Positions 1-30,401 of a DNA stretch of 64,000 nt are shown here, piece by piece; positions within the stretch are counted from its first letter, which is position 1; the number at the start of each line of letters is the position of its first letter. A program made the position numbers and the translations under genes. The DNA comes from Escherichia coli (lineage in GTDB: Bacteria; Pseudomonadota; Gammaproteobacteria; Enterobacterales; Enterobacteriaceae). Location of the stretch: NCBI RefSeq assembly GCF_003334405.1, contig NZ_QOWM01000018.1; one strand, 5' to 3'. The notes beneath the pieces are model-generated. The model made no database searches and was not told where the DNA came from. It saw only the letters and a program-made list of their open reading frames with translations.

Positions 1-857
1 ATCGTCTGCAGGAATTCCGCAATATCAATGCAGATGCTCAGGTAGGTGTATCAGCTGTAGCAGCCATGGCAAATGACACTCTGCCGTTTGCCCTTATGGT
101 CAAGTCTTACGGAACTGTCAGCGTAAACGGAAAAGTAAACGATGCAGACCTGGATTATCTGGACAAAGTTGCCAATGGAACAATTACCGACGTCGATAAG
201 AATGCCCTGACCTCACGCGCATTCGGGCGTGCAGCTGTAATTACCGACGTCGGAATTTCATTTGCCAAAGAACTGGAAACGGCCGGACAAAAATGGTCTC
301 TTGGCGTCACACCAAAATATCAGCGTGTGGACCTGTTTAACTACAACGTAACGGTTCGTGATTACGACAAAGACGATTTTGACGGTGACAAGTACCACAA
401 CACGAAAAACGGATTCAACGCCGATATTGGTGCTTATACAGACCTGAATGACAACTGGACTGTCGGTCTTGTTGCCCAGAACATCATTCCACGCAGTATT
501 GATACAAAAGTCGTCAATGGCTTTAAAGAAACCTTCAAAGTTCGTCCACAGGCAACCGCCGGTGTATCCTGGCATAATGACCTGTTTACCACTGCTCTTG
601 ACGTTGATCTGACTCCTGCCAGTGGCTTCACTTCTGACAGCAAACGTCAGTTTGCAAGTGTTGGTGCTGAATTTAACGCATGGAAATGGGCGCAATTGCG
701 TGCCGGTTATCGTCAGAACATGGCATCAAACTCCGGAAGCGCCTTCACCGCTGGCGTTGGTATCTCTCCATTTGACGTCGTACATATCGATGTTTCCGGC
801 CTGGTAGGAACTGACCACGATTACGGTGCAATGGCACAACTTCAGTTCACTTTCTGA
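1..857 (+). CDS. traF: Conjugal transfer protein, 5'-truncated by window edge; beta-barrel-like C-terminus ending QFTF (TraF position)
   Basis: Reading frame is open from position 3 upstream of the first ATG at 66; C-terminal aromatic residue typical of outer-membrane proteins; position upstream of traG-traH in R64-type order. Confidence 0.4.
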   Translation, partial: RLQEFRNINADAQVGVSAVAAMANDTLPFALMVKSYGTVSVNGKVNDADLDYLDKVANGTITDVDKNALTSRAFGRAAVITDVGISFAKELETAGQKWSLGVTPKYQRVDLFNYNVTVRDYDKDDFDGDKYHNTKNGFNADIGAYTDLNDNWTVGLVAQNIIPRSIDTKVVNGFKETFKVRPQATAGVSWHNDLFTTALDVDLTPASGFTSDSKRQFASVGAEFNAWKWAQLRAGYRQNMASNSGSAFTAGVGISPFDVVHIDVSGLVGTDHDYGAMAQLQFTF

Positions 858-916
858 TTACTGTCCCCGCCCCCGGCACTAAACCCGGGGGTATTTTTAT
901 ATTCAGTTTAAATAAC

Positions 917-1501
917 ATGATGAAACCACGTTCCTCTTATTCAAAGACAGCATTCATTCTTTTATTTTCTGTTTTCCTGGTAGCTGCAGTGACAAAAGCA
1001 AAAAGCTCGCTTCCCGATATCACCCTGGAACAGGCAAAAGAAATTAATGCTGATAACACCGTTATTTTCCTTTTCCGCCATGGAGAACGTTGCGACCGTT
1101 CAGATATGCCCTGCTATTCGGATAAGAGCGGAATCACTATTACCGGTACAGAGAAAGCACAGCAGGAAGGTATTAAGTTCGCAACAATCTTCAGTAAATA
1201 TGATATTTACTCCAGCAATGCAGTAAGAACCATACAAACTGCAAAATTCTTCTCCGGTAAAGAACCCGTCGTTATGGACAGTTTATCAGACTGCAATAAT
1301 GATCTTTATAAGACGCTTGAATCAATCGCAAGAGAATCTCATAAAAGGAACATAGTAATAATGACACATAATCATTGTTTATCATTTCTGGCCAGAGACA
1401 GGCTCGGCAAGAAATTCAAACCGGCGTACCTTGATGCCCTGATCATGCATTACGATGGTACCCGGCTCATACTTGACGGAAAATACAACAAAGAGGCATA
1501 G
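917..1501 (+). CDS. traG: Secreted histidine-phosphatase-superfamily protein (RHGE motif), TraG position
   Basis: N-terminal signal peptide (AFILLFSVFLVAAVTKA); LFRHGERCDRSD matches the RHG[EQ] catalytic signature of the histidine phosphatase/PGM superfamily; lower GC than neighbouring genes. Confidence 0.45.
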   Translation: MMKPRSSYSKTAFILLFSVFLVAAVTKAKSSLPDITLEQAKEINADNTVIFLFRHGERCDRSDMPCYSDKSGITITGTEKAQQEGIKFATIFSKYDIYSSNAVRTIQTAKFFSGKEPVVMDSLSDCNNDLYKTLESIARESHKRNIVIMTHNHCLSFLARDRLGKKFKPAYLDALIMHYDGTRLILDGKYNKEA

Positions 1502-1657
1502 AGGATATTTGAATTTACATAAATTCTGATATACTCAGTAAGATACAAGAGTGTACGGGCACATGTGCCTGTCTGAATTGCAGGTTATCCGGACGAGGGC
1601 CGGGAACTGTTTCAGGGACAAGCGCCGGTACATTCGATTCATAAATCGTCGAGTCAT

Positions 1658-1690
1658 CCATCATGGATCGATTCGGCGCGGAGCGTTAAA
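1658..1690. repeat. ~30-bp repeat, copy 1 (second copy at 63466-63500)
   Basis: CATCATGGATCGATTCGGCGCGGAGCGTTAAAG versus CATCATGCCTGGATCGCTTCGGCGCGGAGCGTTAAG. Confidence 0.4.
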
Positions 1691-1895
1691 GATTACGCTC
1701 ATATTCGTTTTATGTCTGACGACACATCAACCAGCCAGTATCAGGAATAATCACCTTCAGTAAACTATGAGGCTATTTACCTGGCCACACTGGCATTTAT
1801 TTCCGGTAACGCAAGTATAGCCGGAAACAAACATCATCCTGTCTGTACCGGAGCACCGGTATATCCCATTCTGATTTAACTGCTCAGGAATTATT

Positions 1896-2354
1896 ATGAA
1901 CCGTATTATACCTGCGGGGTGTCTTGCCGCCCTTTTTCTGGCTGGCTGCAACTCCCCTTCTCAGCATACTCCTGTTCCGCGTAACTACGGTGCTGCCTCT
2001 GATGTGGCGGTTACCCGGCACACTCAGTACACATTATGGGACAAAGGTGTGTTTTCCGGTCAACTTCCGGTTTCAACGGGGTCTCATCTTCTGACAGCTA
2101 ACAGCGATCGCCTTTCCTTTGACTGGGAAGGTGATGCGATTGAATTACTGAACGAACTGGCCAGAGTCAGGGGGATGCAGTTTAACTACAATGGTGTCCG
2201 CCTGCCGTTACCAGTCAACCTTCACGTCCGGGATATGACGTTTTCCAATACGTTGAGACTTATTGAAGCCCAGACAGCCTGGAGAGCAACAATCCATCAA
2301 TATCCGGGCCTGTTACAGGTCAGCTTCATGCAGCCGGAGAACCGGAAAAAATGA
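1896..2354 (+). CDS. traH: T4BSS lipoprotein TraH (DotD-like)
   Basis: Lipobox LFLAGC; 152 aa; stop/start overlap with traI; gene order. Confidence 0.65.
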   Translation: MNRIIPAGCLAALFLAGCNSPSQHTPVPRNYGAASDVAVTRHTQYTLWDKGVFSGQLPVSTGSHLLTANSDRLSFDWEGDAIELLNELARVRGMQFNYNGVRLPLPVNLHVRDMTFSNTLRLIEAQTAWRATIHQYPGLLQVSFMQPENRKK

Positions 2355-5256: not shown

Positions 5257-8200
5257 ATGCCGTCTGTATCCCGCTACCGCACCTGGCTTGCCGTGCCTGC
5301 AGATGAAATAGAAGATCTCAAAAAAGCACATCCCCCGATGAACGGGCACACGCCCGTCATCTGGGACAAGGAGCACAAACTCTGGTTCGCCCGCCCGGGG
5401 GCAGACCTGTCCAGGCTGGACCGCTGGCTGCCCCGGCCACAGGACGTCTCCATGAACGGCAGTGATCCGGTCACCGAGTTTGCCCAGGTTCTGGAGAATG
5501 CCGGACTGGTTCTGAAAGAACTGCCGGTCATGGACGGGAAAATCCACCGTGTCCCGACCGCCGATGACAAAAAAGGACAAAAAAGTGGCGCATATCGCGG
5601 CTTCCTGGACGGCAGACCTGCCGGCTGGTACAGGGATTATCGCAGCGCGGATGATTCGCCGATCACCTGGACCTTCTCCGGCGGAGAACAGACAGATCCC
5701 CGCGCAAGACTCCACCTGAAAGCGCATTCAATGCAACGCAGGGAGGACGCGGAGCGGGAACTGAAAGCACAGTACAACCGACAGGCCGCGTATGCCCGCC
5801 GCTATGTCAACAAATGGCCGCAGGCCACAGCACATGAATACCTGACCCGGAAAGGCATTCAGGCTGCACCGGGGGTGCGGGTAAACAACAAAAATGAACT
5901 GGTTATTCCCTTCAGTAACCGTAACGGCGCGATACGCTCTTACCAGCGTATTCCGGTCACCGGGGGGAAAGATGCCCGCATCCTGATAGATTCGGAGAAA
6001 ACCGGTAACTGGTTTGCGCTGGGCACACCGCGCAACGGTCAGCCGGTACTGTTTGCCGAGGGCTATGCCACTGCGGCCTCCCTGCACGAAGCCACGGGCC
6101 TTCCGGTACTGATGACGGTGGATGGAGGCAACATGATTGCCGTTGCCGAAAATGCCCGGCAAAAGTGGACGCAAAGCCCCTTTATCTTCTGTGCCGACAA
6201 CGATCATGCAATCCGGGTTAACAAAGGTATCGTCAGTGCAACAAAAGCCGCAGAACTGACAGGAGGAACGGTCATCTTTCCTGCGTTCACCGATGCCGAA
6301 AAAGCGCAGGGACTGACCGATTTCAATGACCTGGACGCCAGCCGGGGACGGGCCGCTTTTCAGCATGTCATCAACGCCCAGTTAGAACATATCGGGGTTT
6401 CCACCCCCAACAGTAACACCCCGGAAATCCGGGAGGCACTGGTGATCGGCAACCTCGTTTTTACACCGGTCCACACTGAGGAAAAAACCATGACTCCGAC
6501 AGAATATCCTGAAACATCACCCGATACAGGGCACAGCCATGACCAGGGACCTTCTCTGCCGTCCGCCACGCAGCAGGAACAACCAGCTGCTTCCAGCAGT
6601 AACATTGCTGATGAAACACAGTCATTTACCAGTCACGCCACTGAAAATAACGGCAAAGATGAGCGGCACGCTGATAACGTTCAGGCGCAAACGGAAAGCT
6701 CTGTAGTTCAGGACTCCCCTGCAGAATCACCGGCGTCCCCGGAAAGTACAACGGCGTCTGCCCCTGATGAACCCGCTCATCCGGCGGAACCTCCGGAAAA
6801 AGTTGTCTCGGTGGCCACAGATAAAGACTGGCGTGAATTTGAAGCCGAACTGTCACAACCGGAAAAAAACGAGTCACAACAGGAATCCGGCACTTCACCT
6901 GAAATACCGGCCCCTGCTGCCGCCCCCGCATCCCCTGAAGACAGTCCCTCATCTGAAACCATGAATGAATCAGCCGAGCCATCACCTTCCCCTGATGCAG
7001 TCAAAGAGGAAATGACCGTGATGACGGAGCCTGATGACAAACAAAGCACCGGAATATCCCCGGATACTCCCCGGGAAGAGGCGGTCAGCCATGTAACTGA
7101 AGACATTCCCCTTCAGCCAGAACCGTTCCTTCCTGAGTCAGATGGCCCTGAAGAATACGAAGACTACAGCGCATATCAGGAGCTGATGAACAATGAAAAT
7201 CCTGAGCATCTGCAGGAAAACAGTGATATGCCGTCGCAACCGGACACAGGCCACGTTCAGGCAGATGAGTCAGAACTTCAGACCACAACAGATACTGCAG
7301 AACCGGCTGTCCGGGATGAACCCACTCCGCAGCAACCTGTTCAGAGCACATCACCTTCTGATAATACTTCTTCGTTTCTCGACAAAGCGCGTGGCCTTTT
7401 TACGCGTAAAAAAACGGATTCACAGGCGCATGAGAACAGTGATCCCACGCCCTCACAGGAAACCACGACGACCACACCGACACCTGACAGTATTGTCTAC
7501 GCCCCGGAACGTTCTGATGCACAGATATCGCTCAACATAGACGAAATTCTTAAAGAGCTTGACTGGGAAAAACGAGCAGACAGAACCGTCCTGTACAAAC
7601 TGGATGGCAAACCTGCCTTCATTGACCGGGTAAACCGGCTGGAAATGGTCAACGGTGCCAGCAATGACGATCGCAGCGTTCTGGCCGCACTTGCTGTGGC
7701 CACCAAATTTTATGGGGGCGTCATAGAGCTGACGGGCAGTGATGCCTTTAAGCAAAAAGCAATGCAGTTGATTATCGAGCACAACATCGATGTCCGGATG
7801 AAATTGCCAGATCAACGGGCTGAACTAGAAAAATTACGCAAGGAAATGGCTGTCAGTAAGGATGCTGTTGTCACCCATCAGCCAACACCGGAACTTAACC
7901 GGAATATCCCTGAACAACCGGCTGTCCCTGACCCCGTTCAGGAAAAAGAAGCCACACAATCCCCGGCGTCCCCTGCTGCCCCTGAAGCATCAACCGTCAG
8001 CACCGCTCCTGCATCATCACCGGCTGAACCAGGCAAAACGGCAGATGCAGCACCAGGTGAAGAACCTCCAGGAAAACTTCGCCCGGGAGAGAGCGTGACT
8101 GCCGTACTGCACAATTTTGGTCGTGCTGAATATGCACCCGGCAAAGGAGAAAGTTTCTTTGTTGAGCTTAAAAACCGCAGTGGCAGCAAACTCTACTGGG

Positions 8201-25819: not shown

Positions 25820-27028
25820 ATGTCTTACAATCGACAGCCTGTCGCAGAAGATCCTATGCAGATATGGGGCGCTGTTGGTGTCCTTCTTATCCTGCTGCTA
25901 TTCGTCATATGGTTATTCTTGCCGGAAGTGGTTTACGCCAGCTGCCTGATTCTTCATACCTTATGGGGACTGGTAGACTGGGGACCATTTCATAACTATG
26001 CAGCACCACGATACAACCTGCTTGCCATGACCGGTAACAACGCCGCCCACATAAGCTATAGCCAGTGGGTTAACGTCATGGAGCAGACCATAGGTATTCT
26101 GTGGATGTACCTCTTACCTGTGACACTCTGGTGTTTGTGGGAGTGGTATCAACATCCGGGACAAAGCCGTTTCACCCGCAGACCAGTAGATATTACCCGA
26201 CTGCCACACATCTTTGCTTCGTTGTCCCCTGCTATCGCCCCTGTACTGGCAGATGGTGATCCGGAAAAACTCTTTCATGGTGGCAAACGACCTGAACGGC
26301 GGGTTGCTCTCACCCCGGAAGCATTTGTCGAACAGCATACTCTCATCACCAATATGCAGCTCGATGTTGCAGCTGCAAGACGATGTTTCATGGCTCAGTT
26401 GGGTAAACCTTTAACGTCCTGGAAAGACATGGCACCACATGAAAAAGCGCTCTTTGCCATATTTGGCCTTCAGTATTTCCTGGATGATCGTAAGGCAGCA
26501 TTAAAGCTCATGGATACACTGAACCTCTCATGCAGAATTAAAAGCAAACGAGACAGCGGGAAATTCTGTACCCCTGTTTATTCACTGGCCAAATCAGCTT
26601 TCCAGAGAGTGATTAAAAGCAACGGAGCACAGCAATGGCTGAAACAACATCGCTACGTCCGCAGTGGGCTGGTCTGGCTGTATGCACATGACCTGCGGCT
26701 TACGCCACCCAACTGGATTTGGCTGAAAGGCGTGGACAGAACGCTGTTTTATGCATTACACCGCGCCAATACCACGAAAGGATTTATTGAAGGCGCTGGC
26801 GTGGTGGCCGTTGCACGTGCAGAGGCCGAAGCCATGCGTTTTGGCCTTCCCTGCCCTGAACCCTGTGTTGATGAAGCGGTGGAAGGCTTACGGCGGGATA
26901 TGCTCAGTCTCGGTCTTATCTGGGATGAACCACAACCAGATCGCGACCGGAAACGCCGCATCCTGACCAACTGGTCCCTCACCGACGACATCCTGCCCCG
27001 TACACCTGCTACAGACAACGAATTCTGA
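25820..27028 (+). CDS. trbA: Transfer membrane protein TrbA (DotM/IcmP position)
   Basis: 402 aa with N-terminal TM helices; precedes trbB-trbC. Confidence 0.55.
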   Translation: MSYNRQPVAEDPMQIWGAVGVLLILLLFVIWLFLPEVVYASCLILHTLWGLVDWGPFHNYAAPRYNLLAMTGNNAAHISYSQWVNVMEQTIGILWMYLLPVTLWCLWEWYQHPGQSRFTRRPVDITRLPHIFASLSPAIAPVLADGDPEKLFHGGKRPERRVALTPEAFVEQHTLITNMQLDVAAARRCFMAQLGKPLTSWKDMAPHEKALFAIFGLQYFLDDRKAALKLMDTLNLSCRIKSKRDSGKFCTPVYSLAKSAFQRVIKSNGAQQWLKQHRYVRSGLVWLYAHDLRLTPPNWIWLKGVDRTLFYALHRANTTKGFIEGAGVVAVARAEAEAMRFGLPCPEPCVDEAVEGLRRDMLSLGLIWDEPQPDRDRKRRILTNWSLTDDILPRTPATDNEF

Positions 27029-27046
27029 TTATCCGGAGAACTGAAA

Positions 27047-28117
27047 ATGACAATCGAGTACTTTGCAACACGCATTGCAAAACATATTTCCGTGCAGGCA
27101 ATCTGGCCGGATGGCAGGACAGAAATTATTGCCGTCCTTCCACGGGATGCCCTGTCAGGGCTGGTAACACGAAATAATCAACTGATTCATATAGCCTTTG
27201 ACGCCATGGGCACCCGTAACAGAGAAACCGTCCTGATTGATAAACAGGAGCATAACGCTGACCAGATACTTACAGCTATTGATTCCTGCCTGCGTCTTGA
27301 ATACCTGATGGAACGCCGCTTCAGCAGAACACCTTTGTTCCGTGGCATAATCGCCAGCGTTGTGCTGTTCGTAATGGCAACGATTGGCTTCTCTCTGTTC
27401 CGCTATGTTGATCGTGTATTCTGGGATGATACAACGCCTGAAGCAGTACAGACAGCAGCTGAGCCACGACTGCTTCCCCCTCACCTGAATCACACTGTGC
27501 CATTAAATGAAGGCATTCAACTCCCGGTTCCCCCGAAAAAAGACGTCCAGGTACCGGAGAAAACAATCACAAGCAAAAATCCGGAAGCCGCAGCTGCGCG
27601 ACATAATCTGGCTACTGTTCTGAAGCGGAACGCCGATCGGGGCATGTTTACCATCAACCTGTCATCCGGTCATGAACGAACCCTGTACGCATTTCTCGAT
27701 CCTGCCTGTCCTAACTGCAGACTTCTGGAGCCGGCCTTAAAACGCCTGGCCAGCGACTTCAATGTCGTTATCTACCCGGTTTCAGTTATTGGTGGAGAGG
27801 AATCCACCGACCGTGTGGCACCACTGCTGTGTGAAAAAGATGCTCAGAAACGTGCTGCCGGCTGGCACCGACTGTATTCCGCAGATAACGGAATGATGAC
27901 GCCATCAGAAGAAACAACGCCTGCAGATGAAACATGCCTGAAAGCGGCCAGAGCTGCAATTGATGTAAACAATGTCGCCTTCCGTAAGTTCGGATTTGCC
28001 GGTACCCCATGGGTGCTGTCCGACACCGGCTGGCATCTGCCTACAGGAATTCTGCAGGAAACTGGCACGCTTAATTTATTCCTGAAAACCACCGACAGCG
28101 AGTCTGGCCATGAGTGA
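27047..28117 (+). CDS. trbB: Thiol:disulfide interchange protein TrbB (DsbC-like thioredoxin fold)
   Basis: CPNC active-site motif in C-terminal domain; N-terminal TM anchor. Confidence 0.65.
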   Translation: MTIEYFATRIAKHISVQAIWPDGRTEIIAVLPRDALSGLVTRNNQLIHIAFDAMGTRNRETVLIDKQEHNADQILTAIDSCLRLEYLMERRFSRTPLFRGIIASVVLFVMATIGFSLFRYVDRVFWDDTTPEAVQTAAEPRLLPPHLNHTVPLNEGIQLPVPPKKDVQVPEKTITSKNPEAAAARHNLATVLKRNADRGMFTINLSSGHERTLYAFLDPACPNCRLLEPALKRLASDFNVVIYPVSVIGGEESTDRVAPLLCEKDAQKRAAGWHRLYSADNGMMTPSEETTPADETCLKAARAAIDVNNVAFRKFGFAGTPWVLSDTGWHLPTGILQETGTLNLFLKTTDSESGHE

Positions 28118-30401
28118 ACATCGCGTTAACCCCGAGCTTTTACACCGTACAGCCTGGGGAAATCCTGTCTGGAATGCACTCCAGAGTCTCAATATCTATG
28201 GCTTTTGCCTGGTGGCAAGTCTTGTGGCCAGTTTTATCTGGCCACTTGCATTACCGGCATGTCTGTTGTTCACACTGATAACAATGCTGGTATTTAGTCT
28301 GCAGCGATGGCGCTGCCCTCTTCGTATGCCCATGACGCTGGAATGTGCTGATCCGTCACAGGACAGAATGATTAAAAGAAGTCTTTTCAGCTTCTGGCCA
28401 ACCCTGTTCCAGTATGAGGTCATTCTGGAATCACCGGCCAGCGGCATATTCTATGTTGGTTATCAACGCGTCAGGGATATTGGCAGGGAGTTATGGCTGA
28501 GTATGGACGATCTGACCCGCCATATAATGTTTTTCGCCACCACCGGTGGCGGTAAAACGGAAACCATCTTTGCCTGGGCGATTAACCCACTTTGCTGGGC
28601 AAGAGGATTCACCCTTGTCGATGGCAAGGCACAGAATGATACGGCAAGAACGATCTGGTATCTGGCCAGACGCTTTGGACGTGAAGACGATGTGGAAGTC
28701 ATTAACTTCATGAACGGAGGAAAATCCCGCAGTGAAATCATTCTGAGTGGTGAAAAAACGCGTCCTCAGTCAAATACCTGGAATCCCTTCTGTTACAGCA
28801 CTGAGGCATTCACAGCGGAGACAATGCAGTCAATGCTGCCCCAGAACGTCCAGGGGGGCGAGTGGCAGTCCCGGGCCATTGCCATGAACAAGGCACTGGT
28901 ATTTGGTACTAAATTCTGGTGTGTGCGCGAAGGCAAAACAATGTCGCTGCAGATGCTCCGTGAACATATGACTCTCGAAGGAATGGCCAAACTTTACTGT
29001 CGTGGCCTCGATGATCAGTGGCCGGAAGAAGCTATCGCACCGTTACGTAACTACCTTCAGGACGTTCCCGGCTTCGACCTGTCGCTGGTCAGGACACCAT
29101 CAGCCTGGACGGAAGAACCCAGAAAACAACATGCTTATCTCTCCGGGCAGTTTTCTGAAACTTTCAGCACATTCACGGAAGCATTCGGAGATATTTTTGC
29201 TGAAGATTCCGGTGATATCGATATCCGTGACAGCATTCACAGCGACAGGATTCTGATGGTAATGATCCCCGCTCTGGATACATCAGCGCATACAACGTCT
29301 GCTCTTGGACGAATGTTTATCACCCAGAAAAGTATGATTCTCGCCCGTGATTTGGGCTATCGCCTCGAAGGAACTGATTCCGATGCACTGGAAGTCAAAA
29401 AATATAAGGGGCGTTTCCCTTATCTGTGTTTCCTTGATGAAGTGGGGGCATACTATACGGACCGTATTGCTGTGGAAGCCACTCAGGTGCGTTCACTGGA
29501 TTTTGCTCTGATTTTGATGGCACAGGACCAGGAACGTATAGAAGGACAGACAACAGCCACGAATACGGCAACACTGATGCAGAACACGGGGACAAAATTT
29601 GCCGGCAGGATTGTCAGCGAGGGCAGTACGGCCAGAACGCTGAAAAGCGCCGCCGGTGAAGAAGCCAGGGCGAGGATGAACAACCTGCAGCGTCAGGACG
29701 GCATATTTGGTGAATCATGGATTGACAGCCCACAAATCAGCATCCTGATGGAAAGTAAGATAGATGTTCAGGAGTTGATTGAACTTCATCCTGGCGAGTT
29801 CTTTTCTATTTTCCGGGGAGAAACCGTACCATCAGCATCATTCTTCATCCCTGACAATGAGAAAAGCTGCAGTAGCGATCCCGTTGTTATAAACAGGTAT
29901 ATCAGCGTGGATGTACCTCGCCTGGACCGTCTCCGCCGTCTGGTTCCCCGTACAGCTCAACGTCGAATCCCGTCACCGGAAAATGTCAGTGCCATCATTG
30001 GCGTCCTGACTGCAAAACCCTCCAGAAAAAGACGAAAAATTCGCACAGAGCCGCACACGATCGTGGATACATTCCAGCAACGCATTGCAGGACGTCAGGC
30101 GGCTATGGCAATGCTGGAAGAGTACGACACGGATATCAACGCACGTGAAAGTGCCTTGTGGGAAACAGCGGTGAATACGCTTAAAACGACCACACGGGAA
30201 GAGCGACGAATTCGCTATATCACGCTGAACAGGCCAGAACTACCTGAAACAAAAGAGGAAAATCAGATATCAGTGAGAGCAGAAAGAGCAGGTATAAACC
30301 TGTTAACGCTTCCACAGGACAATACCCCCCCGACAGGGCGTCCTGTAAACGGGTTTCATCATAAAAAAACCAACCGTCCGGACTGGGACGGAATGTACTG
30401 A
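28110..30401 (+). CDS. trbC: Type IV coupling protein TrbC (DotL/IcmO, VirD4-like)
   Basis: N-terminal TM helices; Walker A FFATTGGGKTE; 763 aa. Confidence 0.8.
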   Translation: MSEHRVNPELLHRTAWGNPVWNALQSLNIYGFCLVASLVASFIWPLALPACLLFTLITMLVFSLQRWRCPLRMPMTLECADPSQDRMIKRSLFSFWPTLFQYEVILESPASGIFYVGYQRVRDIGRELWLSMDDLTRHIMFFATTGGGKTETIFAWAINPLCWARGFTLVDGKAQNDTARTIWYLARRFGREDDVEVINFMNGGKSRSEIILSGEKTRPQSNTWNPFCYSTEAFTAETMQSMLPQNVQGGEWQSRAIAMNKALVFGTKFWCVREGKTMSLQMLREHMTLEGMAKLYCRGLDDQWPEEAIAPLRNYLQDVPGFDLSLVRTPSAWTEEPRKQHAYLSGQFSETFSTFTEAFGDIFAEDSGDIDIRDSIHSDRILMVMIPALDTSAHTTSALGRMFITQKSMILARDLGYRLEGTDSDALEVKKYKGRFPYLCFLDEVGAYYTDRIAVEATQVRSLDFALILMAQDQERIEGQTTATNTATLMQNTGTKFAGRIVSEGSTARTLKSAAGEEARARMNNLQRQDGIFGESWIDSPQISILMESKIDVQELIELHPGEFFSIFRGETVPSASFFIPDNEKSCSSDPVVINRYISVDVPRLDRLRRLVPRTAQRRIPSPENVSAIIGVLTAKPSRKRRKIRTEPHTIVDTFQQRIAGRQAAMAMLEEYDTDINARESALWETAVNTLKTTTREERRIRYITLNRPELPETKEENQISVRAERAGINLLTLPQDNTPPTGRPVNGFHHKKTNRPDWDGMY

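Follow-up and report, generated by a model that had tools for sequence, protein, structure and literature searches.

The traG gene of IncI1 plasmids: a predicted Ais/PmrG-family phosphatase in a variable slot at the traF-traH junction

The traG locus and its surroundings

The window, by which we mean the entire 64,000-nucleotide stretch of DNA analysed here, belongs to an IncI1 plasmid; in E. coli and Salmonella, plasmids of this group are major vehicles of ESBL and AmpC genes. Among the best matches listed, plasmids of E. coli, Salmonella and Klebsiella are 99.3-99.7% identical to the segment, and in a search of plasmid DNA most of it is carried by more than 1,300 plasmids. The best-matching plasmid, typed as IncI1/B/O, MOBP and MPF_I, has the gene order rci - traE - traF - traG ORF - traH - traI - traJ - traK - nuc - sog. 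Because near-identical IncI1 plasmids share this order, the ORF between traF and traH can be identified as the IncI1 traG, and the original prediction, made from the sequence of the window, was correct in placing it at the traG position (traE-traF-gene-traH-traI-traJ). The protein, translated from window positions 917..1501, starts MMKPRSSYSKTAFILLFSVFLVAAVTKAKSS...; some GenBank records label the gene 'traG: histidine phosphatase domain protein'. The features of the locus are collected in Table 1.

Table 1. Features of the traF-traH region, in window coordinates
Feature	Position	Strand	Basis and remarks
traF, 3' part (context)	66..857	+	ORF list, plasmid gene order; gene start upstream of the window
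Replaceable slot, traF stop to traH start	858..1900	.	Comparison with locus L009; traG plus a 394-bp downstream spacer
Terminator-like G+C-rich hairpin with T-run	869..902	+	Consensus scan; directly follows the traF stop and leaves 15 nt to the traG start
traG CDS, predicted Ais/PmrG-family histidine phosphatase	917..1501	+	ORF list; ATG start, 194 aa plus stop
Predicted Sec signal peptide or N-terminal signal anchor, residues 1-28	917..1000	+	Sequence features, AlphaFold helix
LFRHGERCD, residues 52-60 (RHG motif; predicted nucleophile H55, also R54, R58, C59)	1070..1096	+	Sequence, alignment
RTIQTA, residues 104-109 (second phosphate-binding arginine, R104, predicted)	1226..1243	+	R104 invariant
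THNHC, residues 150-154 (predicted second catalytic histidine, H151, also C154)	1364..1378	+	Alignment
Second, weaker terminator-like site	1681-1700		Consensus scan
traH, DotD-like lipoprotein (context)	1896..2354	+	ORF list, plasmid gene order

As the original prediction had also observed, traG is richer in AT than the tra genes that flank it. Its G+C content is 0.407, as against a window median of 0.518 and about 51% in the DNA around the gene; this is the 5th percentile of 585-nt windows over the entire stretch and the 4th percentile inside the tra/trb block. The ais gene of E. coli K-12 is AT-rich as well (G+C 0.433), and low G+C is a trait of the Ais family, to which, as set out below, TraG belongs by sequence.

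With respect to expression signals, the hairpin that precedes traG has 8 pairs, 7 of them G-C, and its stem is kept in three alleles of the TraG clade, with variation in the loop and tail. A sigma-70 promoter scan around traG yielded a single, internal match, fewer than in shuffled sequences, so that no traG promoter can be claimed, and inspection of the sequence before the ATG revealed no Shine-Dalgarno sequence. A degenerate search of the window for PmrA boxes gave 31 matches where 32.5 were expected, none of them upstream of traG. A PmrA/BasR box upstream of the gene was rejected because the matches are at chance level and none lies there; traG probably does not share the PmrA/PmrB control of ais and pmrG.

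An Rfam scan of the window returned no match within or adjoining traG. Elsewhere it found a C4 antisense RNA (RF01695, 63697-63784, plus strand), whose 77.6 bits exceed the gathering score of 45; PK-repZ, the pseudoknot element of repZ, lies some 0.85 kb away on the minus strand (62690-62844). An AgrB match (RF02891, 24814-24901, plus strand, 58.5 bits) lies near a sok match (RF01794, 25526-25683, minus strand, 134 bits), which is itself some 0.15 kb ahead of the ORFs that occupy 25820-30401. Given the usual gene order of IncI1 plasmids, we take these ORFs to be trbA-C and the sok match to be the pnd locus.

TraG as a predicted exported member of the Ais/PmrG family

The idea that TraG might be a histidine phosphatase came from its RHGE motif, within LFRHGERCD, and it has held up well. 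In an alignment of 60 homologues, which extends down to about 20% identity, H55, R104, C59, C66, C126 and C154 are invariant, and R54, E57, R58, D60, T150 and H151 are at least 90% conserved. The arginine-histidine pair of the motif is therefore invariant or nearly so, and the second catalytic histidine, whose presence had initially been left as a point to check, is found as H151 of THNHC. The complete putative catalytic set, R54/H55/R104/H151, is present in TraG.

A search of the PDB with the single TraG sequence gave no match at E <= 1. The profile of the 60-sequence alignment reaches fructose-2,6-bisphosphatase and related entries: its 'RHaERCD' aligns with 'CRHGES', its 'RTaQTA' with 'KRTIQTA' and, in a weak second stretch, its 'vTHseC' with 'iCHQ'. 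The matched motifs of fructose-2,6-bisphosphatase contain the phospho-accepting histidine, the second arginine and the second histidine of the superfamily core. The AlphaFold2 model computed on the same alignment has a pLDDT of 94.8 and a pTM of 0.85, and its top 50 listed Foldseek matches in the PDB are all histidine-phosphatase-fold proteins or domains, with probability 1.0 and query-normalised TM scores of 0.45-0.61; among them are RosC, phosphoserine phosphatase, SixA, PGAM5 and PhoE. The predicted structure of TraG is accordingly the alpha/beta fold of this superfamily. In its modelled fold and its Arg-His...Arg...His core TraG resembles the branch-1 histidine phosphatases (SixA, PhoE, PGAM5, the fructose-2,6-bisphosphatase domain and RosC), but these are cytoplasmic or mitochondrial enzymes, whereas TraG is predicted to be exported and is rich in cysteines, and its identity to them is only 10-21%.

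The N-terminus has the character expected of an exported protein. Residues 1-11 carry a net charge of +3 and are followed by a hydrophobic core of 15 residues (11-25; mean Kyte-Doolittle value 2.72), with candidate small-residue cleavage sites at VAA/V (after residue 24) and TKA/K (after residue 28); there is no lipobox. In the AlphaFold model residues 8-28 form one helix ahead of the domain, and a comparable hydrophobic segment lies N-terminal to the RH motif in 54 of the 60 family members. The signal peptide that had been postulated is thus confirmed as a signal-like N-terminus, which is predicted to be either cleaved or retained as an anchor. Since this hydrophobic segment is combined with four invariant cysteines, TraG appears to be a periplasmic enzyme, presumably exported to that compartment and there provided with disulfides.

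The family to which it belongs can be specified more closely. The curated model NF011945 matches TraG with 294.4 bits (cut-off 142, E = 3.7e-88) over residues 1-192 and profile positions 4-200 of 201; with the same cut-off, Ais of E. coli K-12 scores 392 and the Salmonella PmrG encoded beside arnBCA scores 370. Pairwise, TraG is 43% identical to K-12 Ais (b2252) over 164 aa (E = 6e-51) and 38% identical to the arn-adjacent Salmonella PmrG over 190 aa (E = 3e-53). The general Pfam model His_Phos_1 (PF00300) finds only two weak stretches in TraG (E = 3.5e-4 and 0.043), and it is given for TraG homologues in precomputed Pfam annotation. On the narrower model NF052369, the 'PmrG equivalog' (cut-off 170), TraG scores 124. 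We have rejected this shortfall as evidence against a PmrG-like function: E. coli Ais and Salmonella PmrG, both at 146, are also below the cut-off, and a cut-off that the reference proteins themselves fail does not discriminate. By its sequence, then, TraG is a member of the Ais/PmrG family of LPS-core heptose(II)-phosphate phosphatases, an enzymatic family and not a non-enzymatic TraG family. RefSeq, for its part, names E. coli Ais only a 'putative' LPS core heptose(II)-phosphate phosphatase.

This family is small, with 129 cluster representatives at E <= 0.001 among 1.84 billion. Its neighbour-joining tree is star-like. The enterobacterial members fall into several deep branches at roughly equal distances from one another (36-50% identity between branches), and one of these is the TraG clade. 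The likeness to PmrG of Salmonella enterica (STM2297 family) extends to the length of about 200 aa, the export-type N-terminus, the motifs RHxERCDRS, RTIQxA and THNHC, and the four cysteines. The differences are in the genomic setting: traG is borne on a plasmid within a tra block, whereas pmrG adjoins arnBCA, and, unlike the PmrA-activated PmrG, TraG is on a separate deep branch and has no PmrA-box-like site upstream of its gene. Ais of K-12 is of the same length class, has the same motifs and is similarly AT-rich, but its gene is chromosomal and divergent from arnB. Because traG is plasmid-borne and has no PmrA-box-like site upstream, we regard TraG as a paralogue and not an orthologue of these proteins; beside Ais, it would provide the cell with a second, plasmid-controlled copy.

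The family assignment as such is already public, both in RefSeq and in a table of a 2014 paper, and our literature search found no paper on the function of IncI1 TraG. What is added here is the verification of the catalytic residues and the fold, the absence of the gene from conjugative relatives and, as a modest new detail, the slot-like replacement of its alleles.

A probable substrate in the LPS core

Dephosphorylation of heptose II of the LPS core is the reaction attributed to Salmonella PmrG (PMC8129183; PMC4312571). On balance we think it probable that traG encodes an exported accessory phosphatase of the Ais/PmrG family, likely acting on LPS heptose II phosphate, that stands outside the transfer apparatus and is maintained by purifying selection in a variable slot of the plasmid. 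In this scheme the N-terminal signal would send TraG by the Sec route to the periplasmic face of the inner membrane, where the four conserved cysteines would probably form two disulfides. H55 of the RHG motif would attack a phosphomonoester, with R54, R58 and R104 holding the phosphate and H151 completing the catalytic core. Judging from the family assignment, the most likely substrate would be the phosphate that WaaY installs on heptose II, in the inner core of the LPS of the cell carrying the plasmid, and its removal would deprive the host's own surface of a negative charge without the chromosomal control by PmrA/PmrB. If so, gaining the plasmid could shift the sensitivity of the host to metals, cationic peptides and phages specific for the LPS core, and might affect how the pili of other donors recognise it. 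We infer the export, the disulfides, the substrate, the independence from PmrA and any benefit to plasmid or host. The original prediction had envisaged an envelope or a signalling substrate, modified during mating. The first of these fits: since TraG belongs specifically to the Ais/PmrG family, an envelope substrate is to be expected and a signalling one is not; the connection with mating found no support.

At an identity of only 38% the substrate of TraG may nevertheless differ from that of PmrG. Exported TraG could act on another periplasmic phosphomonoester, for example a different phosphate of the core or lipid A, a carrier lipid or sugar that bears a phosphate, or a phosphoprotein, whether of the envelope or of the transfer apparatus. 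We consider this rather unlikely, if the most serious of the alternatives. It would be consistent with the limited identity to PmrG and Ais (38-43%), with a clade that forms a deep branch of its own and so leaves room for shifts of substrate, and with the very different substrates that histidine-phosphatase folds are known to serve; against it, NF011945 covers TraG from end to end at a score well above the cut-off, all of the family-specific features (RHxERCDRS, the four cysteines, THNHC) are shared, and the neighbouring genes suggest no other substrate.

Exchange, selection and transfer at the traF-traH interval

We have compared window positions 858-1900 with the corresponding interval of four other loci (L009:3945-5050, L012:3059-3161, L013:3059-3416 and L014:3052-3646). 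One of these, L009, comes from an IncI1-like plasmid assembly. Its traE, traF, traH-K and nuc are 96-100% identical to those of IncI1 at the protein level (dS 0.015-0.14, dN/dS 0.00-0.29); its traG is only 72% identical, with a dS of 1.06 and a dN/dS of 0.15. Along the DNA, identity to the window drops from at least 96% to 26-92% exactly over ~858-1900 and recovers at traH, with a mildly diverged tail of the tract extending to ~2150. In this sequence comparison the gap between the two genes acts like an exchangeable slot, a detail that is new. Its contents vary: the IncI1 allele, an allele of 72-74% identity, an Ais-family homologue of 39% identity, an unrelated 138-aa ORF, or 103-358 bp without a gene.

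The 39% homologue is found in CP057134 (typed IncK2/Z), and it retains the catalytic residues. TraF and TraH of this plasmid are 86% and 66% identical to those of IncI1, and its backbone genes are all diverged (53-87%). With a star-like family tree and a backbone that has also diverged, the slot genes of IncI1 and CP057134 are compatible with old orthology and with replacement alike, so that independent acquisition is not claimed. In an Enterobacter hormaechei plasmid the slot is filled by the unrelated 138-aa ORF (L014:3160-3576). Over 36 residues this ORF is 36% identical to the signal peptide and first mature residues of TraG (E = 0.002 for the pair); it has no phosphatase domain and may be either a remnant or a chance match.

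In other plasmids there is no gene at all. In a distant DNA search with traF-traG-traH, many related plasmids match traF and traH as two pieces, skipping traG. Plasmid pNDM-T6, likewise typed conjugative, MPF_I and IncK2/Z by its sequence, has traF, then 103 bp, then traH, and another plasmid typed conjugative, MPF_I and IncK2/Z has an empty traF-traH gap of 358 bp. Conversely, copies of the TraG clade occur away from the tra genes: one, in L011, is 87% identical to TraG (dN/dS 0.18) and retains about 125 bp of the 3' end of traF upstream, and another, in L007, is 59% identical and lies among AraC-type and CaiF/GrlA-type regulator genes. Because the slot undergoes replacement and copies exist off the tra block, traG behaves as a self-contained accessory module and not as a co-evolving subunit.

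Is this module still functional, or is it merely AT-rich foreign DNA, tolerated between two operons and decaying there as a hitch-hiker with no current function? Certain alleles do show damage. One carries R54H in the RHG motif (13 contigs) and another has a 6-aa deletion (SDMPCY) that removes the invariant C66 (10 contigs), both among proteins P0001/P0002. Four further alleles (P0009, P0012, P0015 and P0017) run into one foreign frame, GFAPIFPD[T/I]CYHLTHY..., after residues 150, 148, 137 and 121, respectively, which points to one kind of IS element that entered traG several times independently, at different places; we take the frame to be the end of IS2. Such inactivated alleles are signs that constraint has been relaxed in some lineages. 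Together with the low G+C, the dispensability for transfer (see below) and the absence of the gene from related plasmids, they are what a decaying passenger would lead one to expect. However, dN/dS between traG alleles is 0.15-0.18 over a dS of up to ~1.1, every slot allele examined retains its catalytic residues, and the commonest allele, on at least 1000 contigs, is intact, as against 10-13 contigs for each of the R54H and deletion alleles (the window's own allele, E94K, is on 23). At least 80% of TraG is covered in 1392 of 1441 plasmid matches, and the low G+C is shared with K-12 ais. Decay is therefore very improbable, and from the pattern of substitutions traG is kept by purifying selection.

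Conjugation does not seem to depend on traG. We leave aside here that R64 mutants in traE, traF and traG are reportedly still able to transfer. In the Tn-seq analysis of the IncI1 plasmid pESBL, with one K-12 recipient on solid medium, TraG was assigned probabilities of 0.79 for non-essential, 0.21 for maintenance and 0.00 for required for transfer, whereas the products from TraH to TraY, with the exception of Nuc, had transfer probabilities of 0.74-1.00 (PMC4288162). TraG is thus dispensable for transfer, and there is no Dot/Icm or T4SS family among its NCBIfam and Pfam matches. The least probable reading of all gives TraG a working role in the IncI1 mating apparatus under special conditions, for example with particular recipients, in liquid mating or in the gut: traG does lie inside the tra block in the orientation of its neighbours, traE, traF and traG have been grouped as thick-pilus biogenesis genes (PMC7646527), and the Tn-seq covered a single recipient and surface, but its verdict on transfer, the plasmids typed as conjugative with MPF_I that lack traG altogether, the want of similarity to secretion-system families, the clade members outside tra contexts and the terminator-like hairpins that bracket the locus all speak against it. 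The thick-pilus role stated in the literature is not supported for traG, which is an optional passenger in the mating-gene block and not a component of the T4BSS; the original prediction had likewise doubted that it was a structural part of a Dot/Icm-like apparatus. The main use of our analysis is to correct the papers that habitually list traG with the thick-pilus or T4SS genes; it also confirms the automatic annotation.

If TraG is indeed an accessory LPS-core phosphatase, one may go a step further and imagine that the traF-traH junction of the I-complex plasmids is a dedicated, exchangeable slot for a plasmid-controlled enzyme of LPS-core remodelling, with the surface phenotype as the object of selection. 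This is speculative and we would call it doubtful. Were it true, diverged alleles would have been swapped between near-identical backbones because the surface phenotype is under selection, and any cell that the plasmid enters would acquire a different surface charge and a different set of receptors, independently of PmrA/PmrB. Such a change could alter the tolerance of metals and cationic peptides, the adsorption of core-specific phages and the attractiveness of the cell as a recipient for other donors.

A more specific and improbable proposal, that TraG masks the receptor of the PilV thin pilus on donor cells, found no support. In the only relevant data found, which concern the IncI2 plasmid TP114, heptose II phosphate is irrelevant to recognition by PilVA' (PMC10654706), and masking is also disfavoured by the IncK2/Z plasmids, which have a PilV/shufflon system and manage without traG.

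Finally, TraG is not the only member of its subfamily on E. coli plasmids. The plasmid-borne paralogue P0033 (202 bits with NF011945) is 44-46% identical to it but, unlike TraG, has no tra neighbours: at the three loci where we have located it (L004, L005 and L006, at 6001-6582) it lies between an EAL-domain gene, two alpha/beta-hydrolase genes and a gene for a Peptidase_S6 (EspP-type) autotransporter. Predicted LPS-core phosphatase paralogues therefore ride on more than one type of plasmid.
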